Source of the DNA: Escherichia coli
GTDB taxonomy: Bacteria; Pseudomonadota; Gammaproteobacteria; Enterobacterales; Enterobacteriaceae
DNA: 64,000 nt
Assembly: GCF_046105845.1 (NCBI RefSeq)
Contig: NZ_CP151004.1
Strand: one strand, 5' to 3'
A program made the position numbers and the translations under genes. The notes below the pieces were generated by a model. That model saw only the letters and a list, made by a program, of their open reading frames with translations, was not told where the DNA came from and made no database searches. This document shows positions 14,977-49,318 of the stretch, one piece after another. How positions within the stretch are numbered: position 1 is the first letter of the stretch; each line of letters opens with the position of its first letter.

Positions 14977-16161
14977 ATGAAAAAAGTCATTTTATCTTTG
15001 GCTCTGGGCACGTTTGGTTTGGGGATGGCCGAATTTGGCATTATGGGCGTGCTCACGGAGCTGGCGCATAACGTAGGAATTTCGATTCCTGCTGCCGGGC
15101 ATATGATCTCGTATTATGCGCTGGGGGTGGTGGTCGGTGCGCCAATCATCGCACTCTTTTCCAGCCGCTACTCACTCAAACATATCTTATTGTTTCTGGT
15201 GGCGTTGTGCGTCATTGGCAACGCCATGTTCACGCTCTCTTCGTCTTACCTGATGCTCGCCATTGGTCGGCTGGTTTCCGGCTTTCCGCATGGTGCATTT
15301 TTTGGCGTCGGCGCGATCGTGTTATCGAAAATTATCAAACCCGGCAAAGTCACCGCCGCCGTGGCGGGGATGGTTTCCGGGATGACAGTCGCCAATTTGC
15401 TGGGCATTCCGCTGGGAACGTATTTAAGTCAGGAATTTAGCTGGCGTTACACCTTTTTATTGATCGCTGTTTTTAATATTGCGGTGATGGCATCGGTCTA
15501 TTTTTGGGTGCCGGATATTCGCGACGAGGCGAAAGGGAAGCTACGCGAACAATTTCACTTTTTGCGCAGCCCGGCCCCGTGGTTAATTTTCGCCGCCACC
15601 ATGTTTGGCAACGCAGGTGTGTTTGCCTGGTTCAGCTACGTAAAGCCATACATGATGTTTATTTCCGGTTTTTCGGAAACGGCGATGACTTTTATTATGA
15701 TGTTAGTTGGGCTAGGGATGGTGCTGGGGAATGTGCTAAGTGGCCGGATTTCAGGACGTTATTCACCACTGCGCATTGCGGCAGTAACTGACTTTATTAT
15801 TGTGCTGGCACTGCTGATGCTCTTTTTCTTCGGCGGCATGAAAACAACGTCGCTTATTTTTGCATTTATTTGTTGCGCGGGATTATTTGCCCTTTCAGCA
15901 CCACTGCAAATATTGTTACTGCAAAATGCCAAAGGCGGAGAGTTATTAGGTGCCGCAGGTGGGCAAATAGCGTTTAACCTCGGTAGCGCCGTCGGCGCAT
16001 ATTGCGGTGGTATGATGCTGACGCTGGGGCTGGCATATAATTACGTGGCGCTGCCTGCCGCCCTGCTTTCGTTTGCTGCGATGTCGTCGTTGCTGCTGTA
16101 TGGTCGCTATAAGCGCCAGCAAGCGGCGGATAGTCCGGTGCTGGCGAAACCACTGGGGTAG
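14977..16161 (+). CDS. araJ: MFS transporter AraJ
   Basis: ORF 14893..16161; ATG at 14977 gives MKKVILSLALGTFGLGMAEFG..., matching the 394-aa AraJ. Confidence 0.9.
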   Translation: MKKVILSLALGTFGLGMAEFGIMGVLTELAHNVGISIPAAGHMISYYALGVVVGAPIIALFSSRYSLKHILLFLVALCVIGNAMFTLSSSYLMLAIGRLVSGFPHGAFFGVGAIVLSKIIKPGKVTAAVAGMVSGMTVANLLGIPLGTYLSQEFSWRYTFLLIAVFNIAVMASVYFWVPDIRDEAKGKLREQFHFLRSPAPWLIFAATMFGNAGVFAWFSYVKPYMMFISGFSETAMTFIMMLVGLGMVLGNVLSGRISGRYSPLRIAAVTDFIIVLALLMLFFFGGMKTTSLIFAFICCAGLFALSAPLQILLLQNAKGGELLGAAGGQIAFNLGSAVGAYCGGMMLTLGLAYNYVALPAALLSFAAMSSLLLYGRYKRQQAADSPVLAKPLG

Positions 16162-16187
16162 ATTACTGTCACGGTGCGCGTTGCTTA

Positions 16188-16292
16188 TTGCCGGATGAGG
16201 CGTGAACGCGTTATCGGCCTGCGGTTCCGGCACATTTTGCAGGCCTGATAAGACGCGGCATCGCATCAGGCATGATGCGCCAATTGCCTACG
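16188..16292. repeat. REP/BIME element between convergent araJ and mak
   Basis: tgccggatgaggcgtgaacgcgttatcggcctgc and aggcctgataagacgcggcatcgcatcaggca resemble E. coli REP consensus. Confidence 0.7.
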
Positions 16293-16296
16293 TTTT

Positions 16297-17205
16297 TTAC
16301 TCTTGTGGCCATAACCACGCAGCGCCGCGTACGCCGCTGGAATCACCGTGCTTCGCCTTACGCACCGGCGTTTCACATTCGCCGCCGAAGACAAATTGTT
16401 TAATCAACTGCGGAACCGTTTGATATAAACGGTCTACATTGCTCATCCCGCCCCCCAGGACAATCACATCCGGATCGAGAATATTCACGACATGTGCCAG
16501 CGATTTTGCCAGCCGCAGCTCGTAGCGACGCAATGCCAGTTCCGCTACCGGATCGCTTTCTTCAACCAGGCGGATAATTTCACTGCCTTTCAGCGCATGT
16601 CCGCTCAAACGACGATAATCCGTCGCGAATCCCGTGCCCGAAATAAAGGTTTCAATACAACCTTGTTTACCGCAATAACAAGGGACTTCCTCGCGATAAC
16701 GCAGTTCGTCTTCGTCCATCCACGGTAGCGGATTGTGTCCCCACTCACCTGCCGTGCCATTGCCGCCGATATGCGCCCGCCCATTGAATGCCACGCCCGC
16801 GCCGCATCCCGTGCCGATAATCACGGCAAATACCGTCTGCGCTCCCGCTGCCGCGCCATCTACCGCTTCTGAAACCGCCAGACAGTTGGCGTCATTTGCC
16901 AGCCGCACTTCCCGCTGCAACCGCGCGCTTAAGTCTTTATCGAATGGCTGACCGTTGAGCCAGGTTGAATTGGCATTCTTCACCACGCCGGTGTAAGGCG
17001 AAATTGAGCCAGGAATGCCCATACCTACCGTTCCGCGCAGCCCTGTCGCCTGCTCCGCCATATCAACCAACGTGGCGATCGTTTCAATAGTCTGCCGGTA
17101 ATCATCACGCGGCGTGGGCAGACGATGGCGGTACAACTGCTCCCCTGCATCGCCCAGTGCAATCACTTCAGTTTTGGTGCCGCCTAAATCGATACCTATA
17201 CGCAC
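16297..17205 (-). CDS. mak: Fructokinase/manno(fructo)kinase Mak (ROK family)
   Basis: ORF 16297..17343; GTG at 17205 with AGGAG Shine-Dalgarno gives [18 protein letters not shown]..., matching the 302-aa Mak. Confidence 0.9.
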
Positions 17206-17329
17206 GGTACTCTCCTTATTTTTTTCAATATCAATAGCGTAGAGACGGACAACTGGATTGGCAATGCAAGGCCGCCGACAATTCGTTATCATGCCCGCTA
17301 AATTTAACGACAAGGCCGTGGAAATTATC

Positions 17330-18241
17330 ATGCTGTGGTTCAAAAATTTAATGGTTTACCGTCTTAGCCGCGAGATTTCGTTGCGTGCAGAAGAGATGGA
17401 AAAACAGCTAGCCTCGATGGCATTTACCCCATGCGGCAGCCAGGACATGGCGAAGATGGGCTGGGTTCCTCCGATGGGATCGCACAGCGATGCGTTAACG
17501 CACGTTGCCAATGGTCAAATTGTTATCTGCGCGCGCAAAGAAGAAAAAATCCTCCCGTCTCCGGTGATTAAACAGGCGCTGGAAGCGAAAATCGCCAAAC
17601 TGGAAGCGGAACAGGCGCGTAAGCTGAAGAAAACCGAAAAAGATTCGCTGAAAGACGAAGTGCTGCACTCTCTGCTGCCACGTGCTTTCAGCCGTTTTAG
17701 CCAGACAATGATGTGGATCGACACGGTTAACGGTTTGATTATGGTGGACTGCGCCAGTGCCAAAAAAGCGGAAGATACGCTGGCATTACTGCGTAAAAGC
17801 CTGGGGTCGTTACCGGTTGTACCATTGAGCATGGAAAACCCGATTGAACTGACGCTGACCGAATGGGTACGCTCCGGCAGCGCGGCACAGGGCTTCCAGC
17901 TGCTTGATGAAGCCGAGCTGAAATCACTGCTGGAAGATGGTGGAGTGATCCGCGCGAAGAAACAAGATCTGACCAGCGAAGAGATCACCAATCACATTGA
18001 AGCCGGAAAAGTGGTGACTAAACTGGCGCTCGACTGGCAGCAGCGCATTCAGTTTGTGATGTGCGACGATGGTTCGCTCAAGCGTCTGAAGTTCTGCGAC
18101 GAGCTGCGCGATCAAAACGAAGATATCGACCGTGAAGATTTCGCCCAGCGTTTTGATGCCGATTTCATCCTGATGACTGGTGAACTGGCAGCGTTAATTC
18201 AAAACCTGATTGAAGGATTAGGTGGCGAAGCACAACGTTAA
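17330..18241 (+). CDS. rdgC: Recombination-associated protein RdgC
   Basis: ORF 17258..18241; ATG at 17330 gives [18 protein letters not shown]..., the known 303-aa RdgC. Confidence 0.93.
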
Positions 18242-18260
18242 TTGCTGATTTACCTTTAAT

Positions 18261-18297
18261 GCCGGATGCGACGCCTGCCGCGTCTTATCCGGCGTAC
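18261..18297. repeat. REP element downstream of rdgC
   Basis: gccggatgcgacgcctgccgcgtcttatccggcgtac matches REP consensus. Confidence 0.7.
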
Positions 18298-28323: not shown

Positions 28324-28380
28324 GATTTACTTGCCAGATAGGACCTAAAACGCTTTATCTGGCATGACATTCCTGTTTGA

Positions 28381-32217: not shown

Positions 32218-35892
<3,675 letters not shown>

Positions 35893-36414
35893 TTGTCATC
35901 CCTCCTCAGGGACGTAATAAGTTGATCCATCAATTATCAATGCATAGAAAACATATTATGTTTCGCGCTAACGATTATGCTGCGTTACAGACGAATGGTT
36001 CAATTATTCTTTCCCCTAAGTCCGAATGTGGACATATATAATTTATGGAGAAAAATACACACCGAATTGATAAAAACACCATATTTCAATATGTTGCAGA
36101 TAATGTTATTTTTGAAACATACGCATCATAAATATCACAAACACAAACCAGACAAACATCCTATCAATATGCAACAAAGTTTTAATTATTCAATTTATAG
36201 CAGCAAAACCAAACCCCAAAAATAATAACCAAGAACTATAAATAAAAATTAAAAATATTTTCAGTGAATATGAAATTATTGCTGTTTCTATTACAAAGAT
36301 GTCCTGGCCTCTCTTCCATTCTCTTCTTGTCAACATCGCGACAACTTTCGTAAAACATCCCCACCCTGCTTCAGGTATACTATGCCCCTCGATTCCACAA
36401 ACATCAGGCAGACC

Positions 36415-40844: not shown

Positions 40845-41450
40845 GATTGTCTGCTCCCCTGTCTTGTTATGGGAGCAGTATTCGCGGACAAAAGAATTTG
40901 ATAAAAGAATTAATCATTATGGGCAATACGTTTTTATTCTTAGCAAAAAAATGGCAAACGATAGATTAGTTATGCATGTATCTACCATGTTAAGACTTAG
41001 TAAGCTGTGATTCAGCATGGATGTGAATAAATAATCAAATAGTTCGTTTTCTTATTTACCATTGACCACATGAATGAATAGATGAGCCATCAAGAAACCA
41101 TTCAGATTTTATATAAAACAGCCCTCATACAATGTCAGTATTTTATATATCATTCACTTAATGAATAAATATAAAATAGTTCACAAAGATATTTTTTAAA
41201 TGCAATTAATTGACAAACTAAATCACATCTAAATACAATATATAAAACAAAATTACCATGTATGCTAAGCAAACAAACATTTAACATATGATATACATAA
41301 ATAAAATCTGTCTCCCTAAAGCCCCGTAGGTTATTAAATAACCATTATTTTTAAGGGTTATTTTTTTTAACAGTATGCTTTTTTAGCATCTGAGGATGTT
41401 GCAGTTGGCTACTGTTCTGCGTTCGCCAGGTTTTCTGCATAATAATTAAA

Positions 41451-42137
41451 ATGGAGTGTCATGAATTGGATAAGGTTTTAACTTCTGCGTTGCATTCTTC
41501 CGAGAAAAAGAGGAAAGGTATCCTTGCGATTGGCGCACATCCTGACGATATAGAATTAGGTTGTGGCGCATCGCTTGCTCGACTTGCGAAAAAGGGAATT
41601 TATATCGCAGCCGTTGTCATGACTTCCGGTGATTCTGGTGTAAATGATATTATTGACCGCCATGAAGAATCACGCGAAGCATTAATGATGTTGGGTTGCG
41701 CGCAAACAATACATCTTAATTTTGCCGACACTCGTACCCATTTGCAGCTCAATGATATGATTTCCGCCCTGGAAGACATCATTAAAAATCAAATTCCTTC
41801 TGATGTTGAAATCATGCGGGTATATACCATGCATGATGCCGACCGCCATCAGGATCATCTTGCTGTTTATCAAGCTTCAATGGTTGCCTGCCGAACTATT
41901 CCACAAATTCTCGGCTACGAAACCCCAAGCACCTGGCTTTCATTTATGCCTCAGGTTTTTGAATCCGTTAAAGAAGAATATTTCACAGTCAAACTTGCTG
42001 CATTAAAAAAACATAAAAGCCAGGAACGACGCGATTATATGCGTCATGATCGCCTGCGTGCAGTTGCACAATTTCGCGGGCAACAGGTCAATAGCGATCT
42101 GGGTGAAGGCTTTGTAATTCATAAAATGATTCTTTGA
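41451..42137 (+). CDS. yaiS: PIG-L/LmbE-family deacetylase YaiS; exact start uncertain
   Basis: AHPDD(x)E(x)GCG motif (ILAIGAHPDDIELGCGAS) typical of LmbE-like N-acetylglucosaminyl deacetylases; the 228-aa ORF may over-extend the 5' end relative to the shorter K-12 annotation. Confidence 0.8.
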   Translation: MECHELDKVLTSALHSSEKKRKGILAIGAHPDDIELGCGASLARLAKKGIYIAAVVMTSGDSGVNDIIDRHEESREALMMLGCAQTIHLNFADTRTHLQLNDMISALEDIIKNQIPSDVEIMRVYTMHDADRHQDHLAVYQASMVACRTIPQILGYETPSTWLSFMPQVFESVKEEYFTVKLAALKKHKSQERRDYMRHDRLRAVAQFRGQQVNSDLGEGFVIHKMIL

Positions 42138-42146
42138 GCAAATTGC

Positions 42147-43343
42147 ATGAAAACCTGGATATTTATCTGTATGTCCATAGCAATGTTGCTATGGTTTTTA
42201 AGTACGCTAAAACGTAAACCCAGTCAAAAGAAAGGCTGTATTGACGCAATTATACCTGCTTATAACGAAGGCCCGTGTCTGGCACAGTCACTGGATAATC
42301 TGCTGCGTAACCCTTATTTTTGCCGGGTAATTTGCGTAAACGACGGCTCCACGGACAATACCGAAGCGGTCATGGAGGAAGTCAAACGCAAATGGGGCGA
42401 CCGCTTTGTTGCCGTCACGCAAAAAAATACCGGTAAAGGTGGTGCGCTGATGAATGGCCTCAATTACGCCACCTGCGACCAGGTTTTTTTAAGTGATGCC
42501 GACACCTATGTTCCGCCCGATCAAGACGGAATGGGCTATATGCTGGCAGAAATTGAGCGCGGTGCCGATGCCGTAGGCGGCATTCCCTCTACTGCGTTGA
42601 AAGGCGCGGGTCTGTTACCACACATCCGCGCGACCGTAAAGTTGCCGATGATTGTTATGAAGCGCACGCTACAGCAGCTCGTGGGCGGCGCACCGTTTAT
42701 TATCAGCGGTGCCTGCGGGATGTTCCGTACTGATGTATTGCGTAAGTTCGGTTTCTCAGATCGTACTAAAGTCGAAGACCTTGATCTCACCTGGACATTG
42801 GTGGCAAACGGCTACCGTATTCGGCAGGCGAATCGCTGCATCGTATACCCACAGGAATGCAACAGCCCGCGTGAGGAGTGGCGTCGCTGGCGGCGTTGGA
42901 TTGTGGGCTACGCGGTCTGTATGCGCCTGCATAAAAGACTTTTATTTAGCCGCTTCGGTATCTTCAGTATATTTCCTATGCTGTTGGTTGTGCTTTATGG
43001 CGTTGGGATTTATCTCACTACCTGGTTTAATGAATTCATCACCACCGGGCCGCATGGTGTGGTGTTGGCAATGTTTCCGCTTATCTGGGTCGGCGTAGTT
43101 TGTGTTATTGGTGCTTTTAGCGCCTGGTTTCATCGTTGCTGGTTGTTGGTGCCTTTAGCGCCGCTTTCCGTTGTGTATGTATTATTAGCTTATGCCATCT
43201 GGATTATTTATGGACTTATTGCCTTTTTTACTGGACGCGAACCTCAGCGCGACAAACCCACCCGCTATTCCGCACTGGTGGAAGCGTCAACCGCTTATTC
43301 CCAACCTTCTGCTACAGGAACTGAAAAACTATCTGAAGCTTAA
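42147..43343 (+). CDS. yaiP: Family-2 glycosyltransferase YaiP, membrane-anchored
   Basis: 398 aa; N-terminal transmembrane segment, GT-A motifs (DGSTDNT ... SDADTY), C-terminal transmembrane helices. Confidence 0.88.
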   Translation: MKTWIFICMSIAMLLWFLSTLKRKPSQKKGCIDAIIPAYNEGPCLAQSLDNLLRNPYFCRVICVNDGSTDNTEAVMEEVKRKWGDRFVAVTQKNTGKGGALMNGLNYATCDQVFLSDADTYVPPDQDGMGYMLAEIERGADAVGGIPSTALKGAGLLPHIRATVKLPMIVMKRTLQQLVGGAPFIISGACGMFRTDVLRKFGFSDRTKVEDLDLTWTLVANGYRIRQANRCIVYPQECNSPREEWRRWRRWIVGYAVCMRLHKRLLFSRFGIFSIFPMLLVVLYGVGIYLTTWFNEFITTGPHGVVLAMFPLIWVGVVCVIGAFSAWFHRCWLLVPLAPLSVVYVLLAYAIWIIYGLIAFFTGREPQRDKPTRYSALVEASTAYSQPSATGTEKLSEA

Positions 43344-43902
43344 TGTTAAAGAGAAAAACATTCAGATTGCAGACCAGGTAATTATTGATGAAACTGCAGG
43401 TGAAGTTGTTATCGGCGCGAATACCCGTATTTGTCATGGTGCCGTTATTCAGGGTCCGGTAGTGATTGGCGCAAACTGCCTGATAGGTAATTATGCGTTT
43501 ATTCGTCCTGGCACAATAATCAGCAATGGCGTAAAAATTGGTTTTGCCACCGAAATTAAAAATGCGGTTATTGAAGCGGAAGCAACGATTGGTCCGCAAT
43601 GCTTTATCGCCGACTCGGTAGTTGCAAACCAGGCATATTTGGGCGCACAAGTACGTACCAGTAATCATCGTCTGGATGAACAGCCCGTGTCTGTTAGAAC
43701 TCCAGAGGGAATTATCGCTACCGGATGCGATAAATTAGGTTGTTATATCGGGCAGCGTTCACGCCTTGGCGTACAAGTTATTATTTTGCCTGGGCGAATT
43801 ATTTCCCCGAACACGCAACTTGGCCCGCGCGTGATTGTAGAACGTAATTTACCTCCCGGAACTTATTCACTCCGACAAGAACTTATCCGTACAGGAGATT
43901 AA
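43192..43902 (+). CDS. yaiX: Hexapeptide-repeat (LbH) acyltransferase YaiX, intact; start uncertain
   Basis: Left-handed beta-helix repeats (VIGANTRICHGAVIQGPVVIGANCLIGNYAFI...); longest frame overlaps yaiP 3' end by 152 nt with no in-frame ATG after the overlap; K-12 yaiX is an IS2-disrupted pseudogene. Confidence 0.7.
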   Translation: MPSGLFMDLLPFLLDANLSATNPPAIPHWWKRQPLIPNLLLQELKNYLKLNVKEKNIQIADQVIIDETAGEVVIGANTRICHGAVIQGPVVIGANCLIGNYAFIRPGTIISNGVKIGFATEIKNAVIEAEATIGPQCFIADSVVANQAYLGAQVRTSNHRLDEQPVSVRTPEGIIATGCDKLGCYIGQRSRLGVQVIILPGRIISPNTQLGPRVIVERNLPPGTYSLRQELIRTGD

Positions 43903-44789: not shown

Positions 44790-44838
44790 ATACTATAGGG
44801 GGGTATGTATTGACATATAGAATACCCCCCTATAGTAT
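44790..44838 (+). promoter_or_regulatory. frmRAB promoter/operator: inverted repeat with G6/C6 tracts overlapping -35/-10
   Basis: atactataggggggtat (44790-44806) and atacccccctatagtat (44822-44838) form a 17-nt inverted repeat flanking ttgaca; lies 27 nt upstream of frmR ATG; consistent with an FrmR (CsoR/RcnR-family) operator. Confidence 0.6.
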
Positions 44839-47209: not shown

Positions 47210-47235
47210 TAATAGTGCACGACTGCCGGATGCGG

Positions 47236-47323
47236 CGTAAACGCCTTATCCGGTCTACGGGTGGCGCGGGAATTTGTAGGCCTGATAAGACGCGTCAGCG
47301 TCGCATCAGGCATCTGCGCACGA
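47236..47323. repeat. BIME (two REP units) downstream of frmB
   Basis: tgccggatgcggcgtaaacgccttatccggtctac and aggcctgataagacgcgtcagcgtcgcatcaggca. Confidence 0.75.
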
Positions 47324-49187: not shown

Positions 49188-49279
49188 AAGATGAACCTCG
49201 TTGCGAGTGCAGGTGAATCGCGACTGATACATTGCCAGCCGCGTAATCAGAACCATTTAATGACTGCCTACGGGCGAAA

Positions 49280-49318
49280 TGTAGGCCGGACAAGACGTTT
49301 ACGCCGCATCCGGCAGTC
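49280..49318. repeat. REP element between mhpT and mhpE
   Basis: tgtaggccggacaagacgtttacgccgcatccggcagtc. Confidence 0.7.

Follow-up and report, generated by a model that had tools for sequence, protein, structure and literature searches.

Seven REP units, arranged as two inverted pairs and three singles, at five intergenic gaps of an Escherichia coli chromosomal window

The Y and Z units of the Escherichia coli REP family (Stern 1984; Gilson and Bachellier; Ton-Hoang 2012, PMC3333891) are the closest described relatives of the elements analysed here, which resemble them in their length of 34–38 nt, in being imperfect palindromes with an internal mismatch (GCC(G/T)GATGCG...CTTATC(C/A)GGCCTAC), in their extragenic position and in their many copies per genome. 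Such units also occur combined as BIMEs: BIME-1 joins z1 and y through a long, IHF-binding L linker and is found in single copy, and BIME-2 joins z2 and y through short linkers and is found in tandem, with a copy number that differs from strain to strain (PMC3333891). The passage of PMC1187871 that cites Bachellier 1997 reports length polymorphism of BIME-2 between isolates.

Against this background, the seven units described below depart from canonical E. coli REPs in that four lack GTAG, one lacks a stem and the unit beside rdgC is a Z/Y hybrid. With BIME-2, as seen in the rayT arrays and in the K-12 mhpE-mhpT array, they share the inverted Y/Z arrangement, a 16–17 nt linker, a step of ~100 bp, strain-variable copy number and head-to-head flanks such as GCGCACGAC; unlike those arrays, the paired loci hold one motif each and only a single REP is left at the mhp locus. 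With BIME-1 (RIP/RIB) they share the single Y + Z pair at the 3′-ends of transcription units, but have neither the long L linker nor the IHF consensus. A further likeness is to Pseudomonas REPINs and other RAYT-associated REP doublets (PMC2817692), in which, as here, the inverted doublet is the likely mobilisable unit and the genome holds a RAYT gene. Unlike Pseudomonas REPINs, the present REPs belong to a different sequence family and no RAYT gene lies in the DNA analysed. Pseudomonas REPINs were reportedly described by Bertels and Rainey in 2011.

The window, by which we mean the whole 64-kb stretch of DNA under analysis, is E. coli chromosome from queA to cynT, reversed in orientation relative to K-12 MG1655 (roughly 361–425 kb). 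A sequence-only reading made earlier had assigned its synteny and gene names, which proved correct when checked against the K-12 and MEW annotation, and had listed REP-like palindromes at five gaps; all five hold REP units, and the list is complete for the window. Strain MEW matches the window at 100% identity locally and at 95–99% elsewhere, with several indels. Since the window differs from every genome fetched, gene boundaries were taken from its own ORFs and compared with those annotated in MEW and K-12. By these ORFs and the annotation, all seven REP units are strictly extragenic, lying between annotated CDSs; four form inverted Z–Y pairs at araJ/mak and frmB/yaiL, and three are singles at rdgC/ykiD, mhpE/mhpT and lacY/lacA. 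The motif TGCC(G/T)GATGCG...CTTATC(C/A)GGCCTAC can be read at each of the five sites. The coordinates first given for the sites were accurate at four of them, with frmB shifted by about +12 nt (47236–47323 vs 47224–47312), and the term BIME, applied to the whole set, fits the two inverted pairs, the remaining three sites being single REPs. The features are listed here by position, with strand meaning the strand on which the GTAG-first form reads.

16189..16222, minus strand: degenerate Z-type REP, araJ/mak (profile 14.0 bits, E = 2.6e-3, partial match)
16223..16238, no strand: 16-nt tail-to-tail linker GGTTCCGGCACATTTT, araJ/mak (length as in the K-12 linkers here, sequence nearly the same)
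16239..16272, plus strand: partly decayed Y-type REP, araJ/mak (profile 23.6 bits, E = 2.5e-6)
16284..16291, no strand: TTGCCTAC, possible vestige of a REP tail beside the mak stop codon (also in K-12)
18260..18297, minus strand: single REP between convergent rdgC and ykiD (profile 30.5 bits, E = 1.7e-8)
47224..47258, minus strand: canonical Z-type REP with tail GGTCTAC, frmB/yaiL (profile 38.1 bits; Z2 pattern with 2 mismatches)
47259..47275, no strand: 17-nt tail-to-tail linker GGGTGGCGCGGGAATTT, frmB/yaiL (rare here, typical of the mhpE/mhpT array)
47276..47312, plus strand: canonical Y-type REP, frmB/yaiL (profile 42.7 bits; literature Y pattern with 0 mismatches)
49265..49280, no strand: TGCCTAC and the 9-nt GGGCGAAAT, possible vestigial REP tail and linker (abuts the GTAG of the mhp unit)
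49281..49315, plus strand: single Z-type REP, mhpE/mhpT (profile 40.7 bits; Z2 pattern with 2 mismatches)
62327..62361, minus strand: single Z-type REP, lacY/lacA (profile 36.2 bits; Z2 pattern with 3 mismatches)

Family membership was assessed with an nhmmer profile trained on 200 kb of K-12 DNA from four regions far from the counterpart of the window (the rayT REPtron, malE-malF, hisJ-hisQ and gltP-yjcO). Briefly, units were gathered by their tail motif and the profile was iterated on the training loci only, ending with 40 units; this number in 200 kb reflects high copy number in regions selected for known REPs. The K-12-trained profile recovered all seven units of the window (42.7, 40.7, 38.1, 36.2, 30.5, 23.6 and 14.0 bits); six had E ≤ 2.5e-6, and the full range of E-values was 2.7e-12 to 2.6e-3. 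Beyond these seven units nothing in the 64-kb window scored, the next best match having E = 0.06. The sequence-only reading had named a REP profile scan as its check, with poor scores counting as refutation, and the scan run with this independent profile did not refute it. Three further candidates, at 60566–60580, 59774–59788 and 63012–63027, gave E ≥ 0.06 with the K-12-trained profile and were taken as noise, as was a fourth at 28331–28363, with E ≥ 0.06 under a profile derived from units of the window itself, which is circular and does not count as evidence. A scan of the entire window against Rfam at gathering thresholds returned no match, which says little since, to our knowledge, Rfam has no REP family; REP features are likewise not listed in the current RefSeq annotation of K-12.

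Pattern searches gave a concordant picture for four of the units. Consensus patterns, allowing ≤3 mismatches, matched three times in the Z form (47225–47254, 49285–49314 and 62328–62357) and once in the Y form (47280–47311), and literature patterns, comprising the capitalised conserved positions only of the K-12 Y and Z2 sequences in Table 1 of Nunvar 2010 (PMC2817692), matched the same four units. Furthermore, in megablast searches at a strict word size, the BIME part of the frmB query was found at a median of 15 places per genome in other genomes. We conclude that the seven units (34–38 nt, of the Y and Z types, three solitary and four in two Z-linker-Y pairs) are almost certainly members of the E. 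coli REP family. They are, as had been said of them, ordinary elements from a textbook repeat family.

The type of the two pairs was judged from their geometry. One alternative holds that they are BIME-1 (RIP/RIB) elements whose role is IHF binding between the REPs, and each locus does carry a single Z–Y pair in the window strain, as BIME-1 occurs (PMC3333891). This assignment is nevertheless very unlikely: the units are inverted Z–Y pairs whose tail-to-tail linkers measure 16 nt at araJ/mak and 17 nt at frmB/yaiL, not the length of a long L; the IHF consensus WATCAANNNNTTR has no match on either strand of any of the five gaps; and the tandem copies found at these loci in other strains are BIME-2 or atypical behaviour. 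In the K-12 REPtron, the BIME-2 arrays beside rayT have tail-to-tail linkers of 16 nt, head-to-head linkers of 11–12 nt and a period of 101. The short linkers, the lack of WATCAANNNNTTR and this REPtron-like geometry point to single BIME-2-type motifs. Within the window there are no tandem BIME copies, with one motif at each paired locus, and we class the araJ/mak and frmB/yaiL pairs, on the basis of sequence, as single BIME-2-type motifs, not arrays, with their Z units typed to the level of Z.

Comparison with K-12 and with a wider set of strains revealed variation in copy number at three of the gaps. The araJ/mak gap is 135 nt long with one pair in the window and 244 nt with two pairs in K-12; the frmB/yaiL gap is 125 nt with one pair and 223 nt with two pairs, respectively; and the mhpE/mhpT gap is 175 nt with one REP and 577 nt with nine units, the latter consisting of one degenerate Z and four Y–Z motifs of 101 bp. 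To describe this variation more broadly, ranked matches across 5,426 genomes were sampled at even steps, giving 58 full-length matches per locus. Among the 58 at araJ/mak, 31 had a single pair, 16 were longer by 109 bp and 11 by 133 bp. At frmB/yaiL, the counts were 33 single, 23 double, one triple (TUM13936, confirmed) and one with an IS1 insertion. The widest range was found at mhpE/mhpT, where 32 showed no added length, 7 were at +99, 3 at +202, 3 at +302 and 13 at +402 bp, equivalent to one to four additional motifs; of the 5,426 genomes, 503 lacked any match to the mhp locus. The window allele carries the commonest copy number at each of the three BIME loci in these samples, and from strain to strain the paired loci gain or lose ~100 bp at a time. 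The strain comparison that the sequence-only reading had asked for has thus been run, with copy-number polymorphism, as expected, at three BIME loci, and REP/BIME variation explains why three intergenic gaps differ in length by ~100 to 400 bp among strains. Both the REP elements and polymorphism at the level of the locus are already documented, and knowledge of REPs is unchanged by these observations.

The araJ/mak pair is eroded. Compared with the intact O157 allele, its Z unit has lost the CTAC/GTAG tetranucleotide through a 3-nt deletion and carries two stem-breaking substitutions, and in its Y unit GTAG has become GCAG and a deletion has removed 4 nt from the loop and inner stem. The 701-nt stretch around the pair has matches in 5,424 of 5,426 complete E. 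coli genomes, 29 of them at ≥99% identity. When this stretch is set against the intact single pair of O157:H7, there are 19 differences, 13 of which are concentrated in the pair (91 nt), corresponding to a divergence of ~14% in the pair and 1% in the flanks. On these comparisons, the pair is classed as a rare decayed allele. In predicted folding, the araJ-side Z unit does not surpass its shuffles (z = -1.3 and +0.1), and its Y partner takes a middle position (z = -1.7 and -3.2); since the Z unit barely passes as a REP and lacks a fold, there may be at most one working hairpin at this locus.

Of the single units, that between rdgC and ykiD combines an outer stem like that of Z with an inner stem like that of Y, a kind of hybrid that occurs elsewhere in K-12; its gap is 77 nt long in both the window and K-12, with one base difference, outside the REP. 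The lacY/lacA gap is similarly conserved, at 65 nt in both, with an identical REP portion. The mhp unit is flanked by the stop codon of mhpE (49363) and the start of mhpT (49187), two minus-strand genes. Beside it, the stretch at 49265–49280 is also present in K-12 and is not significant alone; nor is that at 16284–16291, which has no profile match. Together, these TGCCTAC remnants look like possible vestigial tails left by an earlier array contraction.

In the frmB/yaiL pair, both units are canonical and the linker is the unusual part. The usual linker of this gap, present in K-12 and in five of six other alleles fetched, is of the type A(C/T)TTC(G/A)C(C/T)CG(T/C)(A/C)A(G/A)(C/G)C, for example ACTTCGCCCGTAAGCC. 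A 40-nt probe centred on GGGTGGCGCGGGAATTT matched in 8 of 5,426 genomes, with one mismatch each; one of these matches is the frmB/yaiL gap of isolate SC418, and the three others inspected lie in the mhpE/mhpT array. The loop of the Y unit is also of the mhp type, and the Z tail GGTCTAC is that of K-12's own frmB copy. The mhpE/mhpT array is located 2 kb from frmB/yaiL in the opposite orientation and is a single REP in the window strain. An origin of GGGTGGCGCGGGAATTT by inversion of the common linker was considered and set aside (only 9 of 17 positions match by eye). The pair therefore looks like a mosaic with the mhp array, for which ectopic gene conversion would be the simplest reading. That the mosaic arose instead from a recent, RAYT-catalysed transfer of a BIME in vivo seems improbable to us; if it did, the pair would record in nature a BIME mobility so far shown in vitro only.

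A bipartite hairpin was predicted for all units, the araJ-side Z unit being degraded. Five of the seven are predicted to fold on both strands into an outer stem, an internal mismatch, an inner stem and a loop of 4–5 nt, with free energies from -17.6 to -25 kcal/mol and z from -3.3 to -5.9 in the orientation that reads TGCC(G/T)GATG first. Individual values were z = -5.2/-5.9 for the frmB/yaiL Y unit, -4.7 for the rdgC/ykiD unit (-25.0 kcal/mol), -3.9 for the frmB/yaiL Z unit, -3.8 for the lacY/lacA unit and, in the transcript orientation, -3.3 for the mhp unit. Hairpins of this kind could be read as Rho-independent (intrinsic) terminators of the flanking genes rather than as a repeat family: the units are GC-rich hairpins just past stop codons, three times between convergent genes. 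Such a reading is extremely unlikely, however, because no unit is followed by a T-run and a terminator scan of the window places no site on any of them, which argues that they are not intrinsic terminators; because the units share a sequence of 30–40 nt with one another and with other places in the genome, as terminators do not; and because real terminator-like hairpins in the window, such as that at 63013–63042, differ from them. The weakest alternative, that the palindromes are chance products of GC-rich intergenic DNA, has next to no probability: the araJ-side unit does fold like shuffled sequence and a census of the 64-kb window found 146 windows of 45 nt folding at or below -18.5 kcal/mol, but 100 dinucleotide-preserving shuffles gave no pattern match (expectation 0.00 for the consensus and for the literature patterns) vs 3–4 observed, and the profile trained elsewhere reached an E-value of 2.7e-12, so that it is refuted by the shuffle and profile tests. 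Given the number of comparably stable windows, hairpin stability alone is not distinctive and describing the gaps as hairpin-rich says little by itself, and it is family membership that identifies these units as REPs.

The tetranucleotide GTAG is intact in three of the seven units (both frmB/yaiL units and the mhp unit) and is replaced by GCAG in both araJ/mak units, by GTAC in the rdgC/ykiD unit and by GTTG in the lacY/lacA unit; variants of GTAG are likewise found among accepted K-12 REP units. Binding and cleavage by TnpA-REP in vitro require GTAG, and the stem mismatch is needed too (PMC3333891), so the four units without the canonical tetranucleotide are probably past RAYT recognition. 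By analogy, the araJ/mak pair and the rdgC and lac units are likely relics without mobility, which the genome keeps or tolerates as RNA hairpins.

The positions of the REPs also bear on gene annotation. It had been proposed that they support trimmed starts for both mak and lacA, and the two cases turned out differently. The longest lacA ORF (62333–62995, 220 aa) starts at an ATG within the REP head GGATGCGG, and the annotated protein has 203 aa with a start at 62384. Since the longer ORF starts inside the REP hairpin, the REP argues against it: an ATG at 62333 buried in a repeated hairpin is implausible as a start, and the proposal holds for lacA. A second in-frame ATG lies at 62375, 9 nt upstream of 62384 (MIAMNMPM...), where K-12 has GTG, and the REP does not discriminate between these two starts. 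The mak gene lies on the minus strand at 16297–17205, convergent with araJ, and the REP pair sits past both stop codons. The alternative mak start, giving a 348-aa ORF vs the 302-aa annotation, falls at 17205–17343, ~0.9 kb from the REPs; lying beyond the mak stop codon, these REPs are uninformative on where the gene starts, and the claim fails for mak. More generally, recognition of REPs guards against over-extended ORF calls such as the 220-aa lacA, and explains spurious small ORFs such as those at 15946–16266 (minus strand) and 62305–62487.

What these REPs might do can be addressed by analogy with REPs elsewhere. REP hairpins stabilise upstream mRNA, and an effect tied to the stop codon follows a 15-nt rule (PMC12306157). 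All five sites are downstream of at least one stop codon, with the following distances from stop to stem.

lacY, 9 nt; frmB, 15 nt; rdgC, 17 nt; yaiL, 23 nt
mak, 25 nt; ykiD, 25 nt; araJ, 28 nt; mhpE, 48 nt

If transcribed, whether at a 3′-end or between cistrons, a REP hairpin would block 3′-to-5′ exonucleases and thereby stabilise the mRNA upstream, and a REP ≤15 nt from the stop codon could stall the terminating ribosome and lower the output of the upstream gene. At 9 nt, lacY is a candidate for the REP-dependent down-regulation of translation described in published work, and frmB, at 15 nt, is a marginal one; our literature search found no link of a REP to lacY-lacA. The stalling rule does not apply to araJ, mak, rdgC, ykiD, yaiL or mhpE (17–48 nt), whose REPs may act as 3′ stabilisers at most. 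In addition, BIME-2 is a transcription-independent site of gyrase binding and cleavage, with Y cleaved more than Z2 (PMC6379681), and the BIME-2-type pairs of the window might accordingly serve as preferred gyrase sites, mainly in their Y units; with one BIME motif per locus, any gyrase effect in the window should be small. Finally, the spread and amplification of REPs are attributed to RAYT/TnpA-REP (PMC3333891, PMC2817692), and the present units would have spread and been amplified by the same REP-associated tyrosine transposase, encoded in K-12 by rayT, a gene that lies outside the 64-kb window.

Several other features of the window were recorded. Between lacA and cynX, on the minus strand at 63013–63042, a perfect hairpin with a 13-bp stem is followed by a T-run and is terminator-like for cynX; its arm TGTCGGATG resembles a REP head, but the hairpin, with a profile E of 0.25, does not qualify as a REP. 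Just upstream of frmR, at 44791–44835, lies a strong inverted repeat (TACTATAGGGGGGTAT...ATACCCCCCTATAG) that is presumably part of the promoter/operator region of frmRAB. Of all 45-nt hairpins in the window, the most stable (-32 kcal/mol) is at 3052–3096, within a segment between acpH and malZ (1540–3129) that has no K-12 counterpart and in which MEW is annotated with a hypothetical protein. Strain-variable segments are found at 34230–36143 and 40900–43500, and the yaiT/ehaB autotransporter region shows 82–85% identity to K-12. The window carries neither the IS3 and IS2 of K-12 nor the IS200 and IS1 insertions of MEW. In strain PKF8 (NZ_CP156813.1), a copy of IS1 is inserted in the BIME-containing frmB/yaiL gap, which fits the reported role of REPs as targets of insertion sequences (PMC1525189).
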